Below, piece after piece: positions 5,425-46,854 of a stretch of 64,000 nt of DNA. The stretch covers positions 245,458 through 309,457 of the forward strand of contig JAQBQP010000002.1 in the NCBI GenBank assembly GCA_028286905.1, in the 5' to 3' direction. Under the pieces are notes generated by a model, which saw only the letters and a list, made by a program, of their open reading frames with translations, ran no database searches and was not told where the DNA came from. Each line of letters opens with the position of its first letter. Position 1 is the first letter of the stretch. A program made the position numbers and the translations under genes. The DNA comes from Candidatus Doudnabacteria bacterium (GTDB taxonomy: Bacteria > Patescibacteriota > Doudnabacteria > UBA920 > VMFF01).

Positions 5425-6327
5425 ATGCACGTTCAATCCAAAACCCATCGAGCAATTTCAGTAATAGCAATTTCGCTGATCTCTTTTGTCGGCTTGGAGC
5501 TTTTGGTCTATATAAATAATCTTTACCTGACCCAAACTTACATTATGGTCAGCTTTTATATTTACTTCTTCATGCTTCTTTGGCTTTACTTTATTTTTGA
5601 TCTTCATTTTAAAGACCGCGATTATTTAGATGCAAAAACCATTACTCGAACGATCGGCCGCAGATTTAAGCATTTTGCAGTTTGGGAAAATTTTCGATAT
5701 TTCCAAAATTTTCTAATCCTGCCAGGGTTATTATATTGGGGTTCGATTGTTTTGATCGGAATAAATTTTGGCCATCTAAAGTTACAGCACTTTATCGCAG
5801 TGACTACTTCCTTGGCATTGGTTGTGGCGTATTCTTTATTTAAAGAAGTATTCCATCAAAAACAGGCCCCTATTACAAATAGCCATTTCGTAATGTTAAC
5901 TTATATCAAAGTTTATGCTTCCTGGCTGGTTTATGCTGGATCTTTAGGGATAGTTTGGTATTATTGCTTTAAGCCAATAGTTTTTTACGTAGTGGTTTTT
6001 TTGGTAACTTTAATGCTGTTATATCAAGCGCTATTCCAGTTTTGCAAAATCACTTTGCAAAATCTTGGCTTGGCAGTGCTAGTTTCCTTGGTAATGGCTT
6101 TAACTTCCTTTTTTGTTTACCAATTTTGGAATGTTAATTACTTTTCCGCCGGTTTATTTTTAATGGCCTTTTATAATTTTCTTTGGAATATTCTTTATCA
6201 TCTAATAAAAAAAACCTTGAACGGACAGGTTTTTTTAGAACAGTTAACGATCTTTATTTTAATCGTTGTGATGGTTTTTGGAGTGACAAATTTCAAAGCA
6301 AAAATTGAACGATGTGTCTTTTACTAG
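5425..6327 (+). CDS. polytopic membrane protein, hypothetical
   Basis: 300 aa with about 9 TM helices. Follows rmlA, so possibly glycan-related. No motif recognised. Confidence 0.45.
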   Translation: MHVQSKTHRAISVIAISLISFVGLELLVYINNLYLTQTYIMVSFYIYFFMLLWLYFIFDLHFKDRDYLDAKTITRTIGRRFKHFAVWENFRYFQNFLILPGLLYWGSIVLIGINFGHLKLQHFIAVTTSLALVVAYSLFKEVFHQKQAPITNSHFVMLTYIKVYASWLVYAGSLGIVWYYCFKPIVFYVVVFLVTLMLLYQALFQFCKITLQNLGLAVLVSLVMALTSFFVYQFWNVNYFSAGLFLMAFYNFLWNILYHLIKKTLNGQVFLEQLTIFILIVVMVFGVTNFKAKIERCVFY

Positions 6328-7924: not shown

Positions 7925-9124
7925 ATGGAATATCCACAAGGCACAAATGATCTATACGAGCTTTTAGGAGCTGACAAACATGGACATGAAGACGCTGTTA
8001 ACAGCGGTCATGAACACGTTTTAGACATGCCTGTGGAGACCCATGGCGATTCAAGAGCAACTCAAAGCATTGATAATATGGATCCGGTAATTAGCAAAGA
8101 TCCAAAAACAAATGCAGTGGTAATCAAACTTTCGAAGTTAAATCCATTTCAGCTTATCAAGTCCGGGTGGCCTTATCTAATAATCTTCTTTGTAGCTTTA
8201 TTCTTTTACTTAATCCTTTTTACAAATTTTTCAGTGCTTTCTTATATAAAGAGTGTGCCATCTCAAGTTCAAACTAATGTTGCTCAAGCCGATAAACCAC
8301 AATACGCGAACATAGATGCTTACAATGCTTGGATCCGCTCTTACTTTTACGAAGTTAATGATCCAGCAGTGTTAGATCCAGCGACTGATCTTTCTGGAAA
8401 TGGCTTATCTAACTATCAAAAATTTGTGCTTGGTTTAAACCCAAAGAAGAAAGATACGATGGGATTAGGAATGACTGATACTCAAGCGTTGCTTTCTGGA
8501 ATTAACCCTTTGACTGGCAGCCCCTTAAACGATAATCAAAAGAAGTTAATTGCTGATTACATCGATTTGGAATCTGTTGCAAATAAGTTGGCATTGCAAA
8601 CTGCGGATAATACTCCGAAAGTAGCCGGCGCAACTACAGCAAGTAACGACCTAACCAGAGATGGAATTGAGATCAATACAAATATTCCGGCGCAGATAGA
8701 TATTCCAAAGTTAAAAATTTCAGTGCCACTGATTTGGACGAAAGACACCAAGAATTTTGATACCGATTTAGCGCAGGGTGTGGTGCATTATCCAGGTACA
8801 GCTTTACCTGGGGATATTGGAACCGCTTATATCTCTGGTCACTCCTCTAACTATTCTTGGGCAAAAGGCTCTTACAATAAAGTATTCGAAACTTTAGACG
8901 GTTTGAAACAATACGATTCATTTTCGATAACCGCAACCGACGTTAATGGCAAGAAAGTCACTTTCCATTATGTCGTTACTAAAAAACAAGTTTATGCAGC
9001 TGACGATCAAGCACAATTTATCAGCCAAGATAAATCAATCGTTGCATTATCAACCTGCTGGCCAATTGGTACCTCTGCAAAACGTTTAGTTGTTTTTGGA
9101 GAGTTAAGCCAAACAGACAAGTAA
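7925..9124 (+). CDS. sortase family transpeptidase (membrane anchored)
   Basis: N-terminal TM anchor. Catalytic His (YISGHSS), TLXTC motif (ALSTCWP) and conserved Arg (KRLVVFGE). Confidence 0.8.
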   Translation: MEYPQGTNDLYELLGADKHGHEDAVNSGHEHVLDMPVETHGDSRATQSIDNMDPVISKDPKTNAVVIKLSKLNPFQLIKSGWPYLIIFFVALFFYLILFTNFSVLSYIKSVPSQVQTNVAQADKPQYANIDAYNAWIRSYFYEVNDPAVLDPATDLSGNGLSNYQKFVLGLNPKKKDTMGLGMTDTQALLSGINPLTGSPLNDNQKKLIADYIDLESVANKLALQTADNTPKVAGATTASNDLTRDGIEINTNIPAQIDIPKLKISVPLIWTKDTKNFDTDLAQGVVHYPGTALPGDIGTAYISGHSSNYSWAKGSYNKVFETLDGLKQYDSFSITATDVNGKKVTFHYVVTKKQVYAADDQAQFISQDKSIVALSTCWPIGTSAKRLVVFGELSQTDK

Positions 9125-9268: not shown

Positions 9269-10894
9269 ATGCAGAACCGCATCGCTCGCATCGTTTTCGC
9301 GATCGTGTGCTCTCTCGCCTTTGTCGCTCAAAACGCTGTGGCCCAAGCAAAGGTTGCAGGCGTTGAGGTGACGAAGCAGGGAGTCACGGTTCGTTCCTGG
9401 CGCTTCCTCGATCCCGAGGAGCTGTTCAAGGATTACCACAACGCGCCGCAGGCACAGATCGTCAATCTGACTTGTGCCGACACGGCGCAGGCGGGAGCGA
9501 TCATTAACGCCGAGCCGCATACCTTCGGTGGGATGCTGCAGCGGCTGAATGCGTTGCGGGCAGGGTGCAAGAACACCATGCAGGGCAGCTTCACCCGCAA
9601 CGTCCGCTTGGTCACCGCCAGCGAGATGTCGGCGGCAGAACTGCTCGGCTACAATCGCGTCGATGCCAAGACCTACACCACGAACCGGAGCCCCTGGAAG
9701 CAGAAAGGCTTCAAGACGGTGAAGGAACTGTGCCTGTACGCCAAGAGTGACAAGGCGTATCAGAATCTCTTGGTGTCGAAGGACAAGGAAGAGGGTGCAG
9801 AAGTTCTGCGCTACCTTTCGAATTCCTGCGAGACGCTCGATCCGCATGTCTCGGAGATCGAAGCCCCAATCGGGGCGTTGGTCGCTGAAGATCTCGGACT
9901 GAGCGGCGCGGCGCACAATGTCTGGCTGACCGAGCCGGTGAAGCTGGTTCAGGTCGAGACCGAAGACGGCGCCGTCCGGTGGTTCAAGTACAGCTGTGCG
10001 AACGAGGATTTCCCCGTGCTGCGCGTCGAGTACACGATCTCGTACGAGGTACCCGCGCCGAAGTTCGCGCGGTTGGCGATCAGCAAGCAGGTTCGCCTCT
10101 GGGATCACGCCGCAACCAAGCGTTATTCCGACGAAACGTGGGCGAAGTCGGTTACGGTCGATTCGACGCAGGCGTCGCAGTTGATGCCGGTGCAGTATCT
10201 GGTGGTCGTGAAGAGCGTTGGTGACGCAACGGCAACCAACGTACAGGTTCGCGACGAGCCCTCGGTTCGCGACGGACGCTGGTTGATCCTCATTGACCCT
10301 AACTCGCCGTTGGCGAATCCGGTCAATGCAGGCAGCCTGCAGCCGGGCGACTCGCTGGTCTATTTGGTTCATGCTACGGCGCGATCCGGGTGGGTTGGCA
10401 CGGAAACGAATCATGCATTCGCAAAGGCAGACAATGCCTCTGAGGTGCAAGATGTCGCTCAGGTGATTCGGCAGAAAGCGCCCGCGCCTGTCGCGGTTGC
10501 AGAAGCCGGGTTCTACTGCGGGCGGGGTTTCAAGGAAGCCGCTGTTTGTGTCTTGGCTACCTGCGCTACCGTTACGGTGGTCGGGGACGCCGCTGGCTAC
10601 AAGAACATCTGCGGCTTTCCACTCGGCGGCACGGAAGAGAAGACCGGCAACAAGCCGGTCGGTCAGCCGATCACGCAGCTCGATGTCATCTCCTTGCGGA
10701 GTGGCGCGAGCTTAAGCGTCGGCATCAGCCCGTCGCCAGTTGCATCCTCTCAGATGCAGCTGCGTAACTCCAACCTCATCCCGATACTTCCCAGTGTTGG
10801 ATCGCGTCTGAGCATTCGCTCATACCAGTTCAACGCCGGCGTGTCGGTAGGTTTCAACAAGATTCAGTCAGTACTCGGCAAGTTCGCGAAGTAG
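9269..10894 (+). CDS. secreted Cys-rich protein with DUF11-like repeat, encoded in a GC-rich foreign-looking island
   Basis: Signal peptide (MQNRIARIVFAIVCSLAFVAQNAVAQA). DUF11-like segment (YLVVVKSVGDATATNVQVRDEP). About 60% GC against about 38% in the flanks. GAGGT RBS 8 nt upstream of the ATG. Confidence 0.6.
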   Translation: MQNRIARIVFAIVCSLAFVAQNAVAQAKVAGVEVTKQGVTVRSWRFLDPEELFKDYHNAPQAQIVNLTCADTAQAGAIINAEPHTFGGMLQRLNALRAGCKNTMQGSFTRNVRLVTASEMSAAELLGYNRVDAKTYTTNRSPWKQKGFKTVKELCLYAKSDKAYQNLLVSKDKEEGAEVLRYLSNSCETLDPHVSEIEAPIGALVAEDLGLSGAAHNVWLTEPVKLVQVETEDGAVRWFKYSCANEDFPVLRVEYTISYEVPAPKFARLAISKQVRLWDHAATKRYSDETWAKSVTVDSTQASQLMPVQYLVVVKSVGDATATNVQVRDEPSVRDGRWLILIDPNSPLANPVNAGSLQPGDSLVYLVHATARSGWVGTETNHAFAKADNASEVQDVAQVIRQKAPAPVAVAEAGFYCGRGFKEAAVCVLATCATVTVVGDAAGYKNICGFPLGGTEEKTGNKPVGQPITQLDVISLRSGASLSVGISPSPVASSQMQLRNSNLIPILPSVGSRLSIRSYQFNAGVSVGFNKIQSVLGKFAK

Positions 10895-11070: not shown

Positions 11071-14000
11071 ATGATAAGAAAATTTTTGGAAAGGATCAGA
11101 TTCAAATATCTTGCGCTTGCAATAGTTTTTATTGCAATTGCAGCTTTTGGATTTAATCACTTGCGCAATAGCGCGAACGCTGATAGCTGTGGTAATGCTC
11201 CGCTTACTCCGGCTTTCAACATCTGGCCCTTAGCTTGGACCAGCAGCAACTGTCAGGACTTACCATTAATCGAAACTAAGAACTTGAATGGTACTGGCAG
11301 AGATGCCCGTTACTCTTTGAGTCAGTCAGAACATGACGCCGGTATTAACGTAAATCCTGGTGATTCAGTCCGTGTCGCAGTTTACTTCCATAATGGTGCA
11401 AGTCCCGACGATCAAGAAGCAGCAACAGCGCACAACGTTCTTGTTGCAACTCAAATCGATAGCTTATCAGGAACTTCTCATAATGTTTCTGGAGCAATAA
11501 CTGGAACCGGCACCCCGGCTTATAGCTATTACTCTGAAACCGGCGGCGATACTAAAATTAACTCTTCGGTTCCAACAACATTGACATACGTATCTGGCTC
11601 AACCCAGATGTGTATTAGAGATGCAGCTGCTCAAGAATATGGCCTTACTAGTGCCGGTTCTTGTGGAAGCGGTCAAACCTTAGTTGCCGAACCGGATGGC
11701 ATTTTTAACGGCGCAATTAATATTGGTGACGTTAAAGCTTGTTTCCCATACTCGGGTTTAATTATTTTCACTTTGAAAGCTAATGGTCAAACCCCTCCAG
11801 CAAATACAAGCACGACCCTACAAGTTACAAAAACTGTTAGAAATGTAGCGCGAGGCGGAACTGCTTATGGCAAAACTGCATCAGCTGCAAACGGTGAGCC
11901 AGTTGATTTTGAAATTACTGTGAAAAATACTGGCAGTGTAACAGCTACAAATGTTTTCTTAAATGACAATGCGGTTTCTGGCTTAACCTTCTCAAGCGGT
12001 ACAAATGCTACAGGCAGTTTACCGTTAGGGGATTTACAACCTGGGCAAACTTCTGCTCCAGTTAATTTCACTGCAACTTTCAATTCTTCTTCTGCTGTAA
12101 CAAACGTTGCAATTGCAAGAGCATCTAATGCTCCTGACGCTCAAGATTCAGCAACTGTAACTCCAGTCACTGTTGTAGTACCTTCTAACCCTGCTTTATC
12201 TCTTGTTAAAACAGTTAGAAATCTTACAACTTCTGGGACTTTTGCAAAAACTGCAAATGCTACTCAAAGTGACATGGTTGAATACAAAGTAGTTATAACA
12301 AACACAGGCAATGCTACAGTGAACAATTTAGCGTTGAAAGATCAATTACCAAATGGAATTATTTTGAATAGCCCTCAGAGCGGCTCTGTCTTTAGCGATA
12401 TGCTAGGCAGCTTGGCTTCAACCATGACATGGACTATTACTTACCAGGCTACTGTTAGTGCAAATTCAGGCTCATTAATTAATACTGCTACCGTTACCTC
12501 AAGCAATACTAGCCCTGCAACCGACTCTGCAACAGTAAATGTAACTCCTGTTGTTAACACTACTCGTTCACTAACTATCACTAAACAAGTTCGCGATAAC
12601 ACTCAAGGTAACACCGGATATGCTTCTAGCTTAAATGCATTTAATGGTGATACTCTGCAATACCAAATTATTGTTAAGAATACTGGCAATGCTACATTAA
12701 ATAATGTTGTAGTAAACGATCCAATTCCTGGTGGTTTAAATATCGTGGCAAATAGCTTCGGTACTAACCCAGCAACTAATTCTACAATAAACAATATTAC
12801 AATTGGTTCACTAGCAGTAGGGCAGCAATTTGTTATAAACTTTAACACTACAGTTAATCTTTCAAGCCCAGCTTGTGGCACTATTAATAACACTGCTACA
12901 GCTTCTGCTGACCAAACCTCTTCACAATCTGCAAGTGCAGTCGTAAATGTAGTTTGTAATCCTCAGCCAGGTACGCTTTCTATTGTAAAATTAGTAAAAA
13001 ATATTACTCAAAATACTAATTACTCAAAGAGCGTAAGCGCTAATCAAGGTGATCGTATTGGATACCAAATTCAAATTACATCTACTAATGGTGCTGCTTC
13101 AAACGTAACAATGCTTGATTCATTGCCAAACTACCTTGTATATGCTACAGGCAGTGGTAAATTGAACGGCAACGCTTTCGCGGATGGATTTATTTCAAAC
13201 TCTCAAAATATCGGCAGCTTAAGCGCTGGCCAAACATCGACTTTTACTTTTGAAACAAATGTTGCAAACAACTTGCCAACATGTCAGCAAACCACAATTA
13301 CTAATACTGCTAGCACATCTGCTGATCGTATGGGTACTATTTCTGACAGCGCAACAGTTTTTGTAACTAATAATAATGGTTGTGGCGGTGGTGGCAGCAC
13401 TTACGCTCAAATGACTATTAACAAATTAGTTAAAAACAGCAATCAAAATAATTCTTTCCAAAAGAGCGTTTCTGCTAACCAAAACGATCGCGTAACTTTC
13501 CAAGTTACCGTTACAAATACTGGTACTGCAACTTTAAGCAACGCTTATGCTACAGATTTGTTACCAAACGGCTTATCTCTAGTATTTGGTACAGTTCGTT
13601 TAGATAACAATACAGCTTCTGACCAATTTATAAACAACCGTTTGTACCTTGGTAGCATGGCTCCTGGCCAGCAACATACAATCACATTTGATGCGACTGT
13701 TAATAACAACGGTACATCAACTATGACTAACGTTGCGCAGGCAGCGGCTGATAACTTCAGCATGATCCAAGACACTGCAAGCGTATTTGTAAGCCAAGTT
13801 CAAGGTTCTAACGTAGTGTTGTCTTACGCAAAGCGTGCGTTTAACGATACAAAAAATATCGATGCAACATCAGCACCTGCTAACAAAGAAGATTACATTA
13901 CTTACACTTTGACAGTTTCGAACACAGGCAACGCTCCAGCAACTAACTTTGTAGTTTCTGATGACTTGTCCAATGTTTTGAACTACGCAACAGTTACAGA

Positions 14001-14313
14001 TATGAACGGCGCAACTATGAACGGCAACGTTATTAGCTGGCCTTCAGAAACAGTTCAAGCAAACAGCTCAATTAGCCATACTTTCAGAGTAAGAGTTAAG
14101 TTTACTCTTCCTGCTGGCTCATTGCAGATGGTAAACACTTATGGTAACACTGTTACTGTAAGAATTACTCAGCCAGTTGTTTTAGGTGCAATCTTTGTTG
14201 CTCCAAAAACTGGTGCGAGCGCAACTGTCGCTTTGGTCTTTGCTGGATTAGTAACTGCATTCTTTGCAGTAGCTAAGTATAAAGGTCTTTTCCCAAAAAT
14301 TCGTTTTGAATAA
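11071..14313 (+). CDS. large surface protein with multiple DUF11 (conserved repeat) domains and C-terminal APKTG sorting-signal-like tail
   Basis: Signal peptide. At least 6 DUF11-type repeats (for example VTKTVRNVARGG...FEITVKNTGSVTATNVFLNDN). C-terminus APKTG, then a 20-aa hydrophobic stretch, then KYKGLFPKIRFE. AAGGA RBS. Confidence 0.75.
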   Translation: MIRKFLERIRFKYLALAIVFIAIAAFGFNHLRNSANADSCGNAPLTPAFNIWPLAWTSSNCQDLPLIETKNLNGTGRDARYSLSQSEHDAGINVNPGDSVRVAVYFHNGASPDDQEAATAHNVLVATQIDSLSGTSHNVSGAITGTGTPAYSYYSETGGDTKINSSVPTTLTYVSGSTQMCIRDAAAQEYGLTSAGSCGSGQTLVAEPDGIFNGAINIGDVKACFPYSGLIIFTLKANGQTPPANTSTTLQVTKTVRNVARGGTAYGKTASAANGEPVDFEITVKNTGSVTATNVFLNDNAVSGLTFSSGTNATGSLPLGDLQPGQTSAPVNFTATFNSSSAVTNVAIARASNAPDAQDSATVTPVTVVVPSNPALSLVKTVRNLTTSGTFAKTANATQSDMVEYKVVITNTGNATVNNLALKDQLPNGIILNSPQSGSVFSDMLGSLASTMTWTITYQATVSANSGSLINTATVTSSNTSPATDSATVNVTPVVNTTRSLTITKQVRDNTQGNTGYASSLNAFNGDTLQYQIIVKNTGNATLNNVVVNDPIPGGLNIVANSFGTNPATNSTINNITIGSLAVGQQFVINFNTTVNLSSPACGTINNTATASADQTSSQSASAVVNVVCNPQPGTLSIVKLVKNITQNTNYSKSVSANQGDRIGYQIQITSTNGAASNVTMLDSLPNYLVYATGSGKLNGNAFADGFISNSQNIGSLSAGQTSTFTFETNVANNLPTCQQTTITNTASTSADRMGTISDSATVFVTNNNGCGGGGSTYAQMTINKLVKNSNQNNSFQKSVSANQNDRVTFQVTVTNTGTATLSNAYATDLLPNGLSLVFGTVRLDNNTASDQFINNRLYLGSMAPGQQHTITFDATVNNNGTSTMTNVAQAAADNFSMIQDTASVFVSQVQGSNVVLSYAKRAFNDTKNIDATSAPANKEDYITYTLTVSNTGNAPATNFVVSDDLSNVLNYATVTDMNGATMNGNVISWPSETVQANSSISHTFRVRVKFTLPAGSLQMVNTYGNTVTVRITQPVVLGAIFVAPKTGASATVALVFAGLVTAFFAVAKYKGLFPKIRFE

Positions 14314-34621: not shown

Positions 34622-35008
34622 TTATTTTAACTTTAAATTAACTACTTTTTCAACTAATTTATTTTGGAGATTATCCATTCTTTGCTTTGATCCTGCGCAG
34701 AATCCAGGCTGGTTAGTTTGCGGGTCTATTGTGGCGCATCCTTTTTTATCTTCCTCTTCCGCAGCGGAATATATATCTTTTTTTAATTGAATTATTTCTT
34801 CGTTCGTAATTAACGATGTGGGTATTGCAGCGTCTGCCTTTCTTTTTTCAGTCAATTCAGCGAAAAGCGATATCTTACTTTGTTTATAAATCTTAGTTAA
34901 AAAAATGCTAGCAAATATAAAAACCCCTAATAAGGCTACCCATGACAAACCTTTTGCGTATCTATTGCTCATATATTTTAAGATATCAACAACTTTGAAT
35001 ATAAGCAA
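34622..35008 (-). CDS. small membrane-anchored hypothetical protein
   Basis: 128 aa with one N-terminal TM helix and native codon usage. Convergent with the ribosomal operon. Confidence 0.45.
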   Translation of the reverse strand: MLIFKVVDILKYMSNRYAKGLSWVALLGVFIFASIFLTKIYKQSKISLFAELTEKRKADAAIPTSLITNEEIIQLKKDIYSAAEEEDKKGCATIDPQTNQPGFCAGSKQRMDNLQNKLVEKVVNLKLK

Positions 35009-35151: not shown

Positions 35152-35889
35152 ATGGAAAAAATCCCAAATTGGTTAATGCAAGTTGTAGCAGGACTTTTAG
35201 CGGTTCTTTTAATCGTTTTAATAGTCAGCCAGGTTTATAATGTTCAAAGCAAAACTAAAGAAGTAAACGACAAACATATTATTACTATTTCAGCTGAAGG
35301 CAAAGTTATTGCTAAGCCGGATTTAGTTACAGTTAGCGCCGGAGTACAAACTAATGGCGATACTGCCGTAAATGCTCAAGCGGACAATACCAAGAAGATG
35401 AACGCAGTTATTTCTTATATTAAAAATAAAGTTGGTATCAAAGATGAAGATGTCAGTACCCAAAACTATTCAATTTATCAAAATTACCTTAATGGCAGTT
35501 CGACTCCAAGCGGTTACGTAGTAAATCAAACATTGGTTATTAAACTGCATGATTTAAATAAAGCTAGCGACCTGTTAGCAGGCTTAACTCAAAATGGTAT
35601 CAATCAAGTTCAAAGCGTTGATTACAGTATTAATGATCCAGATAACGTTAGAGAACAAGCAAGAGAGATGGCCTTATCAAATGCAAAAGACAAGGCAAGT
35701 AAACTTGCCAATGCGGCTGGCGTTAAATTAGGACAGTTGGTCTCCTTCTCAGAAAACACTAACCCTGGTGGCCCAATTATATATGATGCCAAAGCATCAG
35801 GCATGGGTGGTGGCGGAGCTAGTCCACAGTTGGAACCGGGAACCCAGGAAGTAACTGCTGATATTAGCGTTACATACGAAATTAAATAA
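35152..35889 (+). CDS. SIMPL/DUF541 (YggE/BP26-like) periplasmic protein
   Basis: N-terminal TM or signal, then DUF541-like pattern (ITISAEGKVIAKPD ... NYSIYQNY ... VNQTLVIKL ... DYSINDPD). Confidence 0.7.
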   Translation: MEKIPNWLMQVVAGLLAVLLIVLIVSQVYNVQSKTKEVNDKHIITISAEGKVIAKPDLVTVSAGVQTNGDTAVNAQADNTKKMNAVISYIKNKVGIKDEDVSTQNYSIYQNYLNGSSTPSGYVVNQTLVIKLHDLNKASDLLAGLTQNGINQVQSVDYSINDPDNVREQAREMALSNAKDKASKLANAAGVKLGQLVSFSENTNPGGPIIYDAKASGMGGGGASPQLEPGTQEVTADISVTYEIK

Positions 35890-35935
35890 AATCGTTTCTT
35901 ACAAAATAAATAAAGTTAAATAGTTTAATCAAAAA

Positions 35936-35968
35936 GGATCGTATGCAAAATGCCTACGACCCTTTTTT
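35936..35968. terminator. bidirectional intrinsic terminator-like hairpin (GGATCGTA-loop-TACGACCC) flanked by A-run and T-run
   Basis: 8-bp stem with one mismatch, 11-nt loop, T6 downstream and A5 upstream. The last codons of the minus-strand ORF 35954..36409 read through it. Confidence 0.5.
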
Positions 35969-36409
35969 GATAACACGCGGTGCGCTGTGCCCTGGCGTTC
36001 CGATTGGCCGTTGAGCTGTCGGATTAGAAAGGGTTACAACGATCGGAAGCTGCAGCAGCTCGACATGTGAGCCTCGTGGATCGCTAACCTTCCGAATCCT
36101 TATCGGATCTCCGTTCAGTTCTTCTCGCTGCCTGACGCAATCCTGGAGCCTAGTGGCGATCTGTTGCAACAGATCTGTTGCTTCTGGAAAATCTTCCCGT
36201 AAAGAAAGCATCGATCCGGGCAGCTTGGTGTGCACATAGCGATCCAGGACTGTTACCAGAAACGGATCGTGAACAAGGCACCACCGATTGCTGATTGACC
36301 AGACTTTGATCCAATAAAGCTTTTCGTACCGCTCCAGGTTCATTTCTGGGGGCCGGTCTTCCGAGGGAAGAATTTCGACCACCCGAATAACCTTGTGGTC
36401 CATTTTCAC
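35954..36409 (-). CDS. hypothetical protein encoded in a GC-rich islet
   Basis: 151-aa ORF at about 53% GC in a 38% GC background. GAGGTG just upstream of the ATG. No recognisable domain. C-terminal residues are encoded by the terminator T-run. Confidence 0.35.
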   Translation of the reverse strand: MKMDHKVIRVVEILPSEDRPPEMNLERYEKLYWIKVWSISNRWCLVHDPFLVTVLDRYVHTKLPGSMLSLREDFPEATDLLQQIATRLQDCVRQREELNGDPIRIRKVSDPRGSHVELLQLPIVVTLSNPTAQRPIGTPGHSAPRVIKKGS

Positions 36410-36493
36410 CTCGCGTGTGTTTTAGTAATCCTCCTGTCAATCTAAACCATTTGTTACGCCCCTATTGTAACACAAAAGCGAAAAAACAAATCC

Positions 36494-36521
36494 TTGCTTT
36501 ATATGGTCTATTATGTTATGA
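36494..36521 (+). promoter_or_regulatory. putative rnpB promoter (TTGCTT, 16 nt spacer, TATGAT)
   Basis: Hexamers placed so that the TSS coincides with the 5' strand of the P1 helix at about 36527. Confidence 0.4.
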
Positions 36522-36526
36522 TCATA

Positions 36527-36911
36527 CGGCCTCAAGTAATCTAGATAATCGCTGCTTGGTTTACCAAGTAGAGGAAAGTCCGAACACCCCTAGGTGCGAA
36601 CTTAGGAAGCAAGTTGCCAGGAAATCTGGCCGGGTATACCCAGGTTTGAATGGTTCACGTGACTGTTCAAGAATGGATTAAGCCCAGGGATAGTGCAACA
36701 GAAACATGTCGCCGATGGCCGGTCGTAAGATCGGATCAGGTAAGATTGAAATCGTGCGGTAAGAGCGCACGCGTATGTGCAGAGATGTACTGCGGTGAAA
36801 ACCCAACTTGGTGCAAGGCCAAATAGGCCTTGATCGTAAGATCAGGGCGGGTTGGCTGCTTAGACAGATGATTATCCTCGACAGAATTCGGCTTACCGGG
36901 TTGCTTGAGGC
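36527..36911 (+). ncRNA. rnpB: RNase P RNA (bacterial type A-like)
   Basis: Universal motifs GAGGAAAGTCCG, AGTGCAACAGAAACAT, GCGGTAAGAGCGCAC, CAAGGCCAAATAGG, ACAGAATTCGGCTTAC. P1 pairing between GCCTCAAG (5') and CTTGAGGC (3'). Confidence 0.85.
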
Positions 36912-36928: not shown

Positions 36929-38371
36929 ATGAAGCGTACCGAACTTTTTTTTAACATCGTTTCAATTCCTGTAGACATCATTAGCCTGATTTTAGCCGGC
37001 TTGGTGTCTTTTTATATTAGATTAAGGTTGGATCCATTGATTCCAATCTCTTTTAATTTAAATTTTCAAAATTATTTAATGATTTTATCAAAAGCGATTC
37101 CAGCGCTTTTGATAATTTTTGCTTTTGCGGGACTGTATAATTTAAAAGGAACGCGGCGATTTTCAACAGAATTTTATAAAGTGATCGTGGCAATCTCGAT
37201 GGCGTTATTGCTGATGGTTTTGATTTTCTTTTTTGATCAAACCGTTTTTCCATCGCGTTTAATTATGCTGGTGGCGTGGTTTGCTGGAATCATTTTCGTA
37301 CTGATCGGCAGATTTATTTTGAAAAAAATCCAAGTTGCTTATTTAAGTCGTGGCTACGGGCTTAGAAAGTTACTAGTAATCAGAGGGAACACCGGAGAAG
37401 ACGATACGGTTATAAATTATGTCCGAACCCATCGAGATTTAGGATATCAAGTTATTGCGGAATTTGAAGACAGTCCGGATCTAGTGGAAAAAATGAATGC
37501 GTTATTTTTTAAAACTAAGTACGAAGAAATTTTACAAGCAAATTTCCAACTTTCTCCGGAAACAAACGCCAAACTTGCGCAATTTGCACGTAATAAAGGC
37601 TTGGTTTATAACTTTGTGCCCAATATATTTGATGTTCAAAAAAAGAACGTCGAGTCTAGCGATATTGAGGGGATTCCAGTCATATCCCTAAAGAATACGC
37701 CGTTAGACGGTTGGGGCCAGGTTTACAAAAGAGCTTTTGATGTTATTGTTTCAGCAATTTGTTTGATAATTACTTCGCCTGTATTCTTAGTTTTGGCAAT
37801 TTCAGTAAAACTGGATTCGAAAGGGAAAGTTTTGTATGCTGCTCCACGTGCCGGACGGGATAAGGCGTTTCAATTTTATAAATTCCGCACGATGTTTAGT
37901 CATTTAAGCGTGGGTAAAGAATACGGCGGAGAAGAAGCCGAAAAGATTCGCCAAGAGCTTTGGAAGCAAAATGCTCGAGGCGGCCAAGAAGCGGCATTTT
38001 TGAAAATAAAAGAAGACCCGCGAGTTACAAAGATTGGAAAATTTTTACGTAAATCTAAATTGGATGAAGTCCCTCAATTTTGGAATGTTCTAAAAGGGGA
38101 CATGAGTATGGTCGGACCACGCGCGCATGTTTTGGATGAAGTTGATCGATATAAAGATCATTATCCAAGAATGTTCACAGTAAAACCGGGAATTTTTGGG
38201 TTATCTCAAATTGCCCAGCTATCTTGGCCAGATTTGCCTTTTGATGAAGAAATTCGTTTGAACACTTATTATATTGAAAACTGGTCGATTAAAATGGACC
38301 TAGTGGTTTTATTTAAGACTTTTTATTTTCTGTTTTTAAGCCCCAAAAAACAGCTAGAGAATAATTACTAA
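36929..38371 (+). CDS. undecaprenyl-phosphate sugar phosphotransferase (bacterial sugar transferase, WbaP/CpsE-like)
   Basis: N-terminal TM helices. C-terminal sugar-transferase domain (RAFDVIVSAICLIITSPVFLVLAI, KFRTMF, MSMVGPRA). Start moved to the ATG at 36929, downstream of rnpB. Confidence 0.8.
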   Translation: MKRTELFFNIVSIPVDIISLILAGLVSFYIRLRLDPLIPISFNLNFQNYLMILSKAIPALLIIFAFAGLYNLKGTRRFSTEFYKVIVAISMALLLMVLIFFFDQTVFPSRLIMLVAWFAGIIFVLIGRFILKKIQVAYLSRGYGLRKLLVIRGNTGEDDTVINYVRTHRDLGYQVIAEFEDSPDLVEKMNALFFKTKYEEILQANFQLSPETNAKLAQFARNKGLVYNFVPNIFDVQKKNVESSDIEGIPVISLKNTPLDGWGQVYKRAFDVIVSAICLIITSPVFLVLAISVKLDSKGKVLYAAPRAGRDKAFQFYKFRTMFSHLSVGKEYGGEEAEKIRQELWKQNARGGQEAAFLKIKEDPRVTKIGKFLRKSKLDEVPQFWNVLKGDMSMVGPRAHVLDEVDRYKDHYPRMFTVKPGIFGLSQIAQLSWPDLPFDEEIRLNTYYIENWSIKMDLVVLFKTFYFLFLSPKKQLENNY

Positions 38372-46397: not shown

Positions 46398-46430
46398 GAC
46401 CGGCAAGAGAGAATTCTCTTGCCGGTCTTT
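46398..46430. terminator. perfect 14-bp palindrome (GACCGGCAAGAGAG-aattc-TCTCTTGCCGGTC) centred on an EcoRI site
   Basis: Seen directly. Followed by a weak T-run (TTTG). Lies at the boundary between hpf and the GC-rich islet. Confidence 0.55.
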
Positions 46431-46449: not shown

Positions 46450-46854
46450 TCAGGCGGTTTGCAACCGCAGATTGGGGTGTGCGCCATCCCGAGCGAGCTC
46501 GACATGCTTGATCAGCATCGCTATGTGCCCGAACGGTTTGGGCAGAACATGCTGGAAAAGCTTCAAGCTGAACGCCGCGACTTCGCCGCCGGTAACTCCG
46601 ATGGCATAGCCACGCCGGGTCGCCATCTTGTAGATGGTGGCAATTTCGTTGGCATTCATGTCGCCGAACGAGAAGTTGCTGACGATCAGGCAGTCGAACT
46701 CGTTGTGCTGGATTTGCTGCCTTGCCTCGGCGCCGTTCTGGACGATCGTGATGTTATCGCGCGGCAAACCCTCACCCCGCGCTAGGATTCGCGGATACAT
46801 GCTATTCATGCTTGGATCGCGCGAGATGATCAGGATGTTAATCGAATCAGACAC
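46450..46854 (-). CDS. receiver-fold (CheY-like) pseudo-receiver protein encoded in a GC-rich islet
   Basis: GTG start 9 nt after a perfect AGGAGG. Receiver-like layout (ILIISRD, then DCLIVSNFSFGDMNANEI, then AIGVTGG, then KPF). The phospho-acceptor position appears to be Asn. About 57% GC. Confidence 0.5.
   Translation of the reverse strand: MSDSINILIISRDPSMNSMYPRILARGEGLPRDNITIVQNGAEARQQIQHNEFDCLIVSNFSFGDMNANEIATIYKMATRRGYAIGVTGGEVAAFSLKLFQHVLPKPFGHIAMLIKHVELARDGAHPNLRLQTA

Follow-up and report, generated by a model that had tools for sequence, protein, structure and literature searches.

The window analysed here is a 64,000-nucleotide (nt) stretch of the genome of a Candidatus Doudnabacteria bacterium (contig JAQBQP010000002.1 of assembly GCA_028286905.1, positions 245,458 to 309,457 of the forward strand), in which a GC-rich block at positions 35930-36440 carries a single orphan gene on the minus strand. 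On its left, a SIMPL/DUF541 (YggE-like) gene is the last of a plus-strand run of ribosomal-protein genes, rpoA, and SIMPL, and on its right lies rnpB, the gene for the class A bacterial RNase P RNA (Table 1). Both are conserved flanks of the slot between them. In related contigs, reached through SIMPL homologues at 52-68% identity and labelled L here, the SIMPL flank is syntenic in L003-L011, L090, and L091, and rnpB is present in L003-L011 and L091 as well. A second strain is labelled L001, and L089 and L008 have the same slot content as L005 and L007, respectively. The GC content of the block is 50.9%, rising to 52.5% in its core (35970-36420), compared with 39.3% across the 64-kb window. 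Segments of 511 nt at the GC level of the block make up 3% of all such segments and fall only into islands 1 (~9.0-10.6 kb), 2 (the block itself), and 3 (~46.3-46.5 kb). The L13 and SecA proteins of the window match proteins of a Candidatus Doudnabacteria metagenome-assembled genome exactly. The genes of the window lie nearly all on the plus strand with a GC content at third codon positions (GC3) of 0.28-0.45, and islands 1-3 are its only compositional outliers; the orphan gene has 52% GC and a GC3 of 0.55. A sequence-only reading had described a GC-rich islet with one minus-strand open reading frame (ORF) of 151 amino acids (aa) between a terminator and the rnpB promoter, and these values bear that description out.

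The orphan gene shares its terminator with SIMPL, which reads into the same hairpin from the plus strand. The inverted repeat has 17-nt arms that are 88% complementary, and its minimum free energy is lower on the minus strand (-20.4 kcal/mol) than on the plus strand (-16.8 kcal/mol). A simple terminator scanner passed over this hairpin because of the mismatches in its stem. As had been noticed earlier, the ORF runs into the terminator: the hairpin takes in the last four codons of the ORF and its stop codon (35954-35956), and the ending K-K-G-S-stop is encoded by the A-run and the stem. At the other end of the gene, ATG 36403 is a likelier start than GTG 36409 because a GAGG lies five nt upstream of it and the gene call in the second strain uses the same start.

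Upstream of the gene, the sequence suggests a set of expression signals. A Shine-Dalgarno (SD) element and an ATG are found in each of four lineages (the window, L004, L005, and L007), the SD-like motif in the latter three being GAGG, GGAGG, or GGGGGAGAG. A purine-rich element in the 5' untranslated region (UTR) is conserved in the window, L004, and L005, and not in L007. Further upstream, a putative extended -10 promoter points away from rnpB, with an implied 5' UTR of roughly 55 nt, and aligns in all four lineages as TGyTAsAAT followed by a G-rich discriminator. Back to back with it lies a putative rnpB promoter, which scores under the threshold of a simple promoter scanner; its pattern, CTTGAyTTT-17-TGnTAnnAT, is conserved ahead of rnpB in occupied and empty slots alike. 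These motifs suggest that the orphan gene is probably expressed from a promoter of its own.

Table 1. Features of the SIMPL-rnpB slot in the window and in related loci, with neighbouring features and islands 1 and 3
Feature	Locus	Position	Strand	Details
Orphan protein-coding gene	Window	35954..36403	-	149 aa from ATG 36403; 151 aa from GTG 36409 (ORF 35954..36409)
Bidirectional intrinsic terminator hairpin	Window	35931..35967	both	Arms 35931-35947 and 35951-35967; A-run before, T-run after
Shine-Dalgarno-like GAGGTG	Window	36407..36412	-	GAGG core 5 nt before ATG 36403; read from sequence
Purine-rich 5'-UTR element AGGAGGATTA	Window	36430..36439	-	~25 nt upstream of working SD
Putative extended -10 promoter TGTTACAAT of orphan gene	Window	36464..36472	-	Consensus and conservation
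Putative rnpB promoter	Window	36494..36522	+	-35 TTGCTT (36494-36499), 17-nt spacer, extended -10 TGTTATGAT (36514-36522)
SIMPL/DUF541 (YggE-like) gene	Window	35152..35889	+	Pfam PF04402, E=2.1e-51
rnpB (bacterial RNase P RNA, class A)	Window	36533..36911	+	Rfam RF00010, 168.6 bits, E=9e-54
GC-rich ORF after SIMPL	L004, L005 (=L089), L007 (=L008)	5814-6203 (L004)	-	129, 123, 137 aa; 51-53% GC in 42-44% GC loci
Empty slot	L003, L009/L010, L011, L091			65-152 nt; terminator and rnpB promoter only
Vut_1 gene in slot	L006		+	
GC-rich lipoprotein after SIMPL	L090	3995-4483	+	162 aa, 55-56% GC; lipoprotein-type signal (MNRIALLFVLVGCAGC); no rnpB before contig end
263-aa ORF after SIMPL	P0010 contig		-	Distinct from orphan gene
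S9-SIMPL slot ORFs	L003; L005; L004; L006	2715-3005; 3498-3785; 4494-4829; 3543-3929		No detectable mutual similarity
S9-SIMPL slot ORF	Window	34622-35008	-	128 aa, AT-rich, membrane-protein-like
Sortase gene	Window	7925-9124		Left of island 1 ORF
Island 1 ORF	Window	9269-10894	+	541 aa, 60% GC; signal-peptide-like N-terminus; weak DUF11/DUF7507 similarity (E ~0.01)
Repeat surface protein	Window	11071-14313		1080 aa; right of island 1 ORF
Island 3 ORF	Window	46450-46854	-	134 aa, 57% GC, GC3 0.75; between hibernation-factor gene and secA
Island 3 promoter-like site	Window	46943-46915	-	With TG extension
Island 3 hairpin	Window	46398-46427		Common with upstream gene

The orphan gene is protein-coding, intact, positionally conserved, and fast-evolving. 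Its ORF is intact in five sequences from the four lineages, and the slot ORFs show a three-base periodicity (chi-square test of base against codon position: p=7e-4, 4e-5, 6e-3, and 1e-2; pooled p=7e-12) that carries the position-1 and position-2 signature of the native genes in every lineage. In addition, residues conserved across the slot ORFs are encoded by different synonymous codons. The length of the ORF in the window was matched, in any frame, by 12 of 2000 dinucleotide shuffles of the slot, and those in L004, L005, and L007 by 19, 27, and 57 of 2000, respectively.

Comparison with the second strain reveals how the gene is selected. L001, a contig from the Joint Genome Institute, has the same synteny and a 149-aa homologue that is 96% identical, and the two sequences share 98.5% nucleotide identity without indels across 1607 nt. 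The 24 differences include 13 in the 450-nt ORF, eight in SIMPL, and none in rnpB. Those in the orphan ORF are seven synonymous and six non-synonymous changes, giving a non-synonymous rate (dN) of 0.018, a synonymous rate (dS) of 0.066, and a ratio (omega) of 0.27 (p=0.023 against neutral evolution), and those in SIMPL are all eight synonymous (dN 0, dS 0.053, omega 0). This shows that the orphan ORF is under purifying selection that is relaxed relative to SIMPL. Since dS is alike in the two genes, the orphan ORF was resident before the two strains split. An earlier suggestion that the block might be a decayed remnant is thus contradicted by the intact frames, the periodicity, and the omega value.

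A perfect 18-bp palindrome, GATCTGTTGCAACAGATC, lies within the orphan ORF at 36158-36175 (codons DLLQQI); chance would place about 0.24 palindromes of this kind in 64 kb. The palindrome is unchanged in L001 despite substitutions on both sides and is missing at the equivalent position in L004, L005, and L007.

The sequence-only reading had proposed a look at orthologous loci for presence or absence, and this comparison shows that the SIMPL-rnpB junction is a variable gene-turnover slot between conserved core features. Three further lineages hold a minus-strand GC-rich ORF at the same place; elsewhere the slot is empty or occupied by other genes (Table 1). Every known member of the orphan family is located in this slot, as a single copy in the window and in all loci examined. 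An assembly artefact is ruled out because the arrangement recurs in independent samples and assemblies. A scan of metagenomes with SIMPL returned 80 loci, among which the SIMPL-rnpB synteny is kept only in L009-L011, and a scan of genome contigs returned one distant Desulfotruncus locus only.

Two further observations concern this region. In a close relative (Joint Genome Institute contig 3300048101, the P0007 context), ~780 nt separate SIMPL from the sugar-transferase gene with no minus-strand gene call between them; ~400 nt are left over once rnpB is allowed for, which could be a degraded copy of the orphan gene. Moreover, the adjacent rpsI (S9)-SIMPL slot varies as well, with GC-rich ORFs of 95-128 aa (51-60% GC) in relatives and an AT-rich ORF in the window.

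To what extent the slot ORFs of different lineages belong together was assessed by several comparisons. By BLASTP, the window protein matched that of L004 at E=0.006 (31% over 90 aa), that of L005 at E=0.002 (41% over 32 aa), and that of L007 at E=0.039 (48% over 25 aa), and all three alignments are collinear. The Smith-Waterman scores of the same three pairs were reached by 0, 13, and 14 of 500 shuffles, respectively, and leave-one-out profiles recovered L004 (0 of 2000 shuffles) and L005 (9 of 2000). Judging from position, strand, size, composition, and upstream motifs, the slot ORFs of the window, L004, and L005 are likely homologous, and on the same basis that of L007 is probably a further homologue.

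The family has changed quickly. The slot proteins are 20-28% identical between lineages, compared with 49-85% for the flanking S9, SIMPL, and sugar-transferase proteins and 79-91% for rnpB. Likewise, the proportion of changed non-synonymous sites (pN) is ~0.5 in the slot and 0.04-0.32 in the neighbouring genes, which are saturated at synonymous sites (pS 0.56-0.85). L005 and L089 differ at two positions in 1368 nt, both non-synonymous and both in the slot ORF; two substitutions are too few for a second dN/dS estimate. A species tree built from RpoA, L17, and L13 (concatenated, 583 columns, neighbour joining, 200 bootstraps) recovered (window,(L004,L005)) with 100% bootstrap support and (L006,L007) with 95.5%, with L090 outside. 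In the SIMPL tree, L003, whose slot is empty, falls near the ORF-bearing clade.

As the earlier reading had also stated, the orphan protein has no recognisable domain. Pfam, NCBIfam, PHROGs, and PADLOC gave no family for the window protein or any other member, the sole exception being phrog_7737 (unknown function) at E=0.015 over 17 residues. A sequence-profile search of the PDB yielded nothing significant (best match E=0.19). An exhaustive HMMER search of 1.84 billion representatives returned the 96% identical strain homologue as its only genuine match; three further matches were rejected as spurious, being long repeat proteins whose scores were summed over 4-7 stretches. A profile built from the four-lineage alignment and run against 5.8 billion clusters found the four known lineages and no new member. 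Overall, searches covering about 15 billion proteins gave no homologue beyond the Doudnabacteria lineages, phage, plasmid, and viral collections yielded no relative, and an exact look-up of the 149-aa product returned no record.

AlphaFold2, run with a shallow alignment, modelled the window protein with a predicted local distance difference test (pLDDT) score of 54.7 and the L004 protein with one of 65.5; in both models a beta-hairpin at the N-terminus is followed by a helical middle part and by strands at the C-terminus. The orphan protein is predicted to be soluble, with a low-confidence alpha/beta model; no signal peptide or transmembrane segment was seen on reading the slot-protein sequences, whose isoelectric points are 5.0-8.8. 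Foldseek searches of the PDB and BFVD with both models gave no match at E<=1e-3. The first model did produce many weak matches in both databases to phage tail-terminator or tail-completion proteins (lambda gpU, the DUF3168-like alpha/beta fold), which are similar in size to the orphan protein, the best at E=3e-3 with template modelling scores of 0.3-0.4. However, the better L004 model gave no such matches, and no PHROG of that function was hit; these matches were treated as noise. No phage genes lie in the vicinity of the orphan gene. A type II toxin-antitoxin or other two-gene conflict module finds no adjacent partner either: upstream lie only the UTR and promoters, downstream only the terminator, and the slot has no room for a second gene.

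We conclude that the block is probably a lineage-restricted, fast-evolving accessory orphan gene that forms an autonomous minus-strand single-gene transcription unit in a variable inter-operon slot. In the proposed model, the extended -10 promoter, back to back with that of rnpB, would drive a minus-strand transcript with a 5' UTR of roughly 55 nt. Translation would begin at ATG 36403 and yield a product of about 149 aa, soluble and alpha/beta in fold, and transcription would stop at the bidirectional hairpin held in common with SIMPL. The family would be very small and would occur only at the SIMPL-rnpB junction, in a subclade of Doudnabacteria made up of the window strain, L001, L004, L005, and probably L007. 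The gene would change several-fold faster than its neighbours (omega about 0.3) and would be dispensable, as some relatives lack it, through loss or from the outset, and in others the slot holds another gene; such a pattern is typical of an accessory gene in a turnover hot spot between core genes. We infer that it was inherited from a common ancestor with later losses and that its original source was foreign and GC-richer. An accessory role, possibly related to conflict or host interaction, is a guess from the rapid evolution and the presence/absence pattern. A recent foreign insertion does not fit, as relatives whose flanks are synonymously saturated hold the gene in the same slot, on the same strand, and with the same promoter motif.

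ORFan accessory genes in hot spots of horizontal gene transfer or gene turnover between core genes are a close known likeness. Like them, the orphan gene is single, small, restricted to a narrow clade, atypical in composition, and fast-evolving, and it is present or absent among close relatives between SIMPL and rnpB, with other cargo elsewhere. However, no donor lineage or mobility gene was found for it, and it is GC-richer than its genome, with a GC3 that stays high across lineages with saturated flanks. ORFans are classically AT-richer than their genome.

Several points weigh against the reading of one inherited orphan gene. The similarity scores that connect the lineages are weak: the Smith-Waterman pairs L004-L005, L004-L007, and L005-L007 are individually non-significant, and leave-one-out profiles fail to recover the window protein and L007. 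If the L007 ORF is homologous, several losses or replacements are needed, since its sister L006 has Vut_1 and L003 is empty. In addition, after vertical descent through saturated synonymous divergence, GC3 should have fallen to the genomic value of ~0.34, yet it is 0.52-0.64 in the slot ORFs of all four lineages, so that an old, partly ameliorated transfer fits uncomfortably. Finally, the sense strand folds beyond its shuffles in L004 (z=-3.9) and L007 (z=-3.3), which may reflect an added constraint at the RNA level.

Some of these points would be explained if the block were a mobile or hitchhiking cassette, one of a set of related GC-rich single-gene units inserted repeatedly and independently at operon boundaries and here beside rnpB. 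An external GC-rich pool, for example phages, plasmids, a host, or other Doudnabacteria, would supply these units, and homologous recombination between the conserved flanking sequences could bring them in. Individually transferred genes and islands are reported to be frequent in Patescibacteria (PMC12455944), and such a feature is therefore expected. The content of the slot is patchy and fits the species tree imperfectly, and unrelated GC-rich ORFs occupy the same or the neighbouring slot (the lipoprotein of L090 and the S9-SIMPL ORFs of L003, L004, L005, and L006). Repeated recent import would account for a GC3 that is high in every lineage despite saturated flanks. However, no donor or second copy was found among the protein, phage, plasmid, and viral collections searched, and the equal dS of gene and flank places the gene at this locus before the two strains split. 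The collinear protein similarity and the motifs of promoter and UTR speak for a single origin. L004 and L005 are very close in their core proteins and have unrecognisably different slot proteins, but an omega of ~0.3 together with saturated dS is enough to produce 20-28% identity, and allelic replacement is therefore not needed.

The DNA of the slot also lacks the marks of a cassette. No terminal repeats, target-site duplication, attC-like site, or recombinase/integrase were found there, and apart from the terminator it has one inverted repeat only, a weak 70% pair in the promoter region. The sequence-only reading had suggested a family of small hitchhiking cassettes for the block and islands 1 and 3. 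The likeness in pattern stands in part: all three islands are GC-rich single genes at operon boundaries, and island 3 has the same architecture, a minus-strand single-gene unit that ends at the bidirectional hairpin of the upstream gene. The proposed kinship is not supported, as the islands have no common DNA ends or repeats, no DNA or protein similarity, and different GC3 values (0.75, 0.55, and 0.75 for islands 1, 2, and 3), and neither mobility features nor a mobile-element relative accompany the orphan gene. What unites the islands is that each is a GC-rich accessory gene placed at an operon boundary; it is not membership of a cassette family. We consider descent of the block from such a mobile cassette unlikely.

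Island 1, between a sortase gene and a repeat surface protein, resembles an acquired cell-surface protein. The protein of island 3 has no Pfam match and a faint, non-significant resemblance to receiver domains (PDB 3c97, E=0.33; 3kht, E=0.95). The L004 slot protein matched island 3 over 45 aa at E=0.003; this was dismissed as chance, being one of 21 comparisons, and the window protein is unlike island 3. GATC occurs nine times in the orphan ORF of the window (1.7 expected), seven times in the L004 ORF (1.5), 14 times in island 1 (5.9), and five times in island 3 (1.5). It is not enriched in the slot ORFs of L005 or L007 (two and none), and it was rejected as a feature of the family because it is not conserved there; the excess may stem from the composition of GC-rich coding sequence or from the source of that sequence.

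The persistent GC3 admits another explanation, in which the GC-richness of the orphan gene, and of the other small GC-rich inter-operon ORFs of the clade, is actively maintained and not a leftover of transfer. It is suspected because the four lineages keep their high GC3 next to neighbours that are synonymously saturated, and we hold it to be quite doubtful, an outside chance. Possible causes are a function at the RNA level (a dual-function mRNA or a structured RNA divergent from rnpB), a local hot spot of GC-biased recombination or gene conversion, and a continual new supply from a GC-rich gene pool that lies outside the sampling, for example a host or mobile element of these episymbionts.

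In an AT-rich genome, a GC-rich island is classically taken as a sign of structured RNA. The functional product of the block could accordingly be an RNA of ~0.5 kb, structured and either non-coding or dual-function, that starts from the conserved promoter, with the GC-richness reflecting RNA structure and the ORF secondary or incidental. Like the GC-rich structured RNA genes of AT-rich genomes, such as rnpB or the large non-coding RNAs that screens of GC-rich intergenic sequence turn up, the islet is a discrete GC-rich block of that size with a putative promoter and terminator of its own, both conserved, and it adjoins a true structured RNA; its synonymous sites stay GC-rich. Folding z-scores on the sense strand were -3.9 for the ORF of L004 and -3.3 for that of L007, compared with -4.6 for rnpB and +0.4 for SIMPL as controls. 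However, they were only -1.7 in the window and -0.5 in L005, and the whole-unit z of -2.3 on both strands includes the terminator, to which it is partly owed. The hairpins and palindromes of the slot ORFs lie at non-homologous positions, and conserved helices were not found. The earlier reading had named an unannotated structured RNA, to be sought in Rfam, as what would overturn it; at E<=1 in the window, L004, L005, and L007, the slot is empty of Rfam matches, and only rnpB and sub-threshold matches outside the slot were returned. Set against this inconsistent thermodynamic signal are clear coding signatures: periodicity, omega below 1, an SD element with ATG, and same-strand open frames in four lineages. 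A purely non-coding reading of the block is unlikely, and we regard a structured RNA with an incidental ORF as a very slight prospect.

Among the sub-threshold matches are two resembling the fluoride riboswitch, in the window at 36965-37017 (-) and in L007 at 5844-5896 (-), scoring 16.5 and 21.4 bits against a gathering score of 34. They lie at the same place in two lineages, on the minus strand within the 5' end of the sugar-transferase gene, and are probably due to chance and coding conservation. The longest-ORF call of this gene (Bac_transf sugar transferase) starts at TTG 36905 and overlaps the 3' end of rnpB (36911); its true start is probably ATG 36929 (MKRTELFF...), the same as in relatives.

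That the block is a spurious ORF or a decayed remnant, a GC-rich spacer that happens to lack stop codons and encodes nothing functional, is scarcely credible, for although GC-rich DNA yields long chance ORFs (such as an overlapping 96-aa frame at 36150-36440 and many in island 1), single ORF-length tests reach only p ~0.006-0.03, and no homologue was found outside the clade, four diverged lineages have an open frame on the same strand, each with an SD element and ATG, the pooled periodicity is strong, and the strain pair shows an excess of synonymous changes and no indels.

As a lineage-restricted orphan gene, the block adds one clade-restricted small protein family to the large hypothetical fraction of the genomes of the candidate phyla radiation (CPR)/Patescibacteria and puts the SIMPL-rnpB junction on record as a slot of gene turnover. 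It also illustrates that GC-rich islets of AT-rich genomes can be something other than a structured RNA or a recently inserted foreign segment. If its GC-rich synonymous sites prove to be selected or driven by recombination, the locus would be a compact natural test case for how composition is shaped and how orphan genes survive in the streamlined genomes of symbionts.

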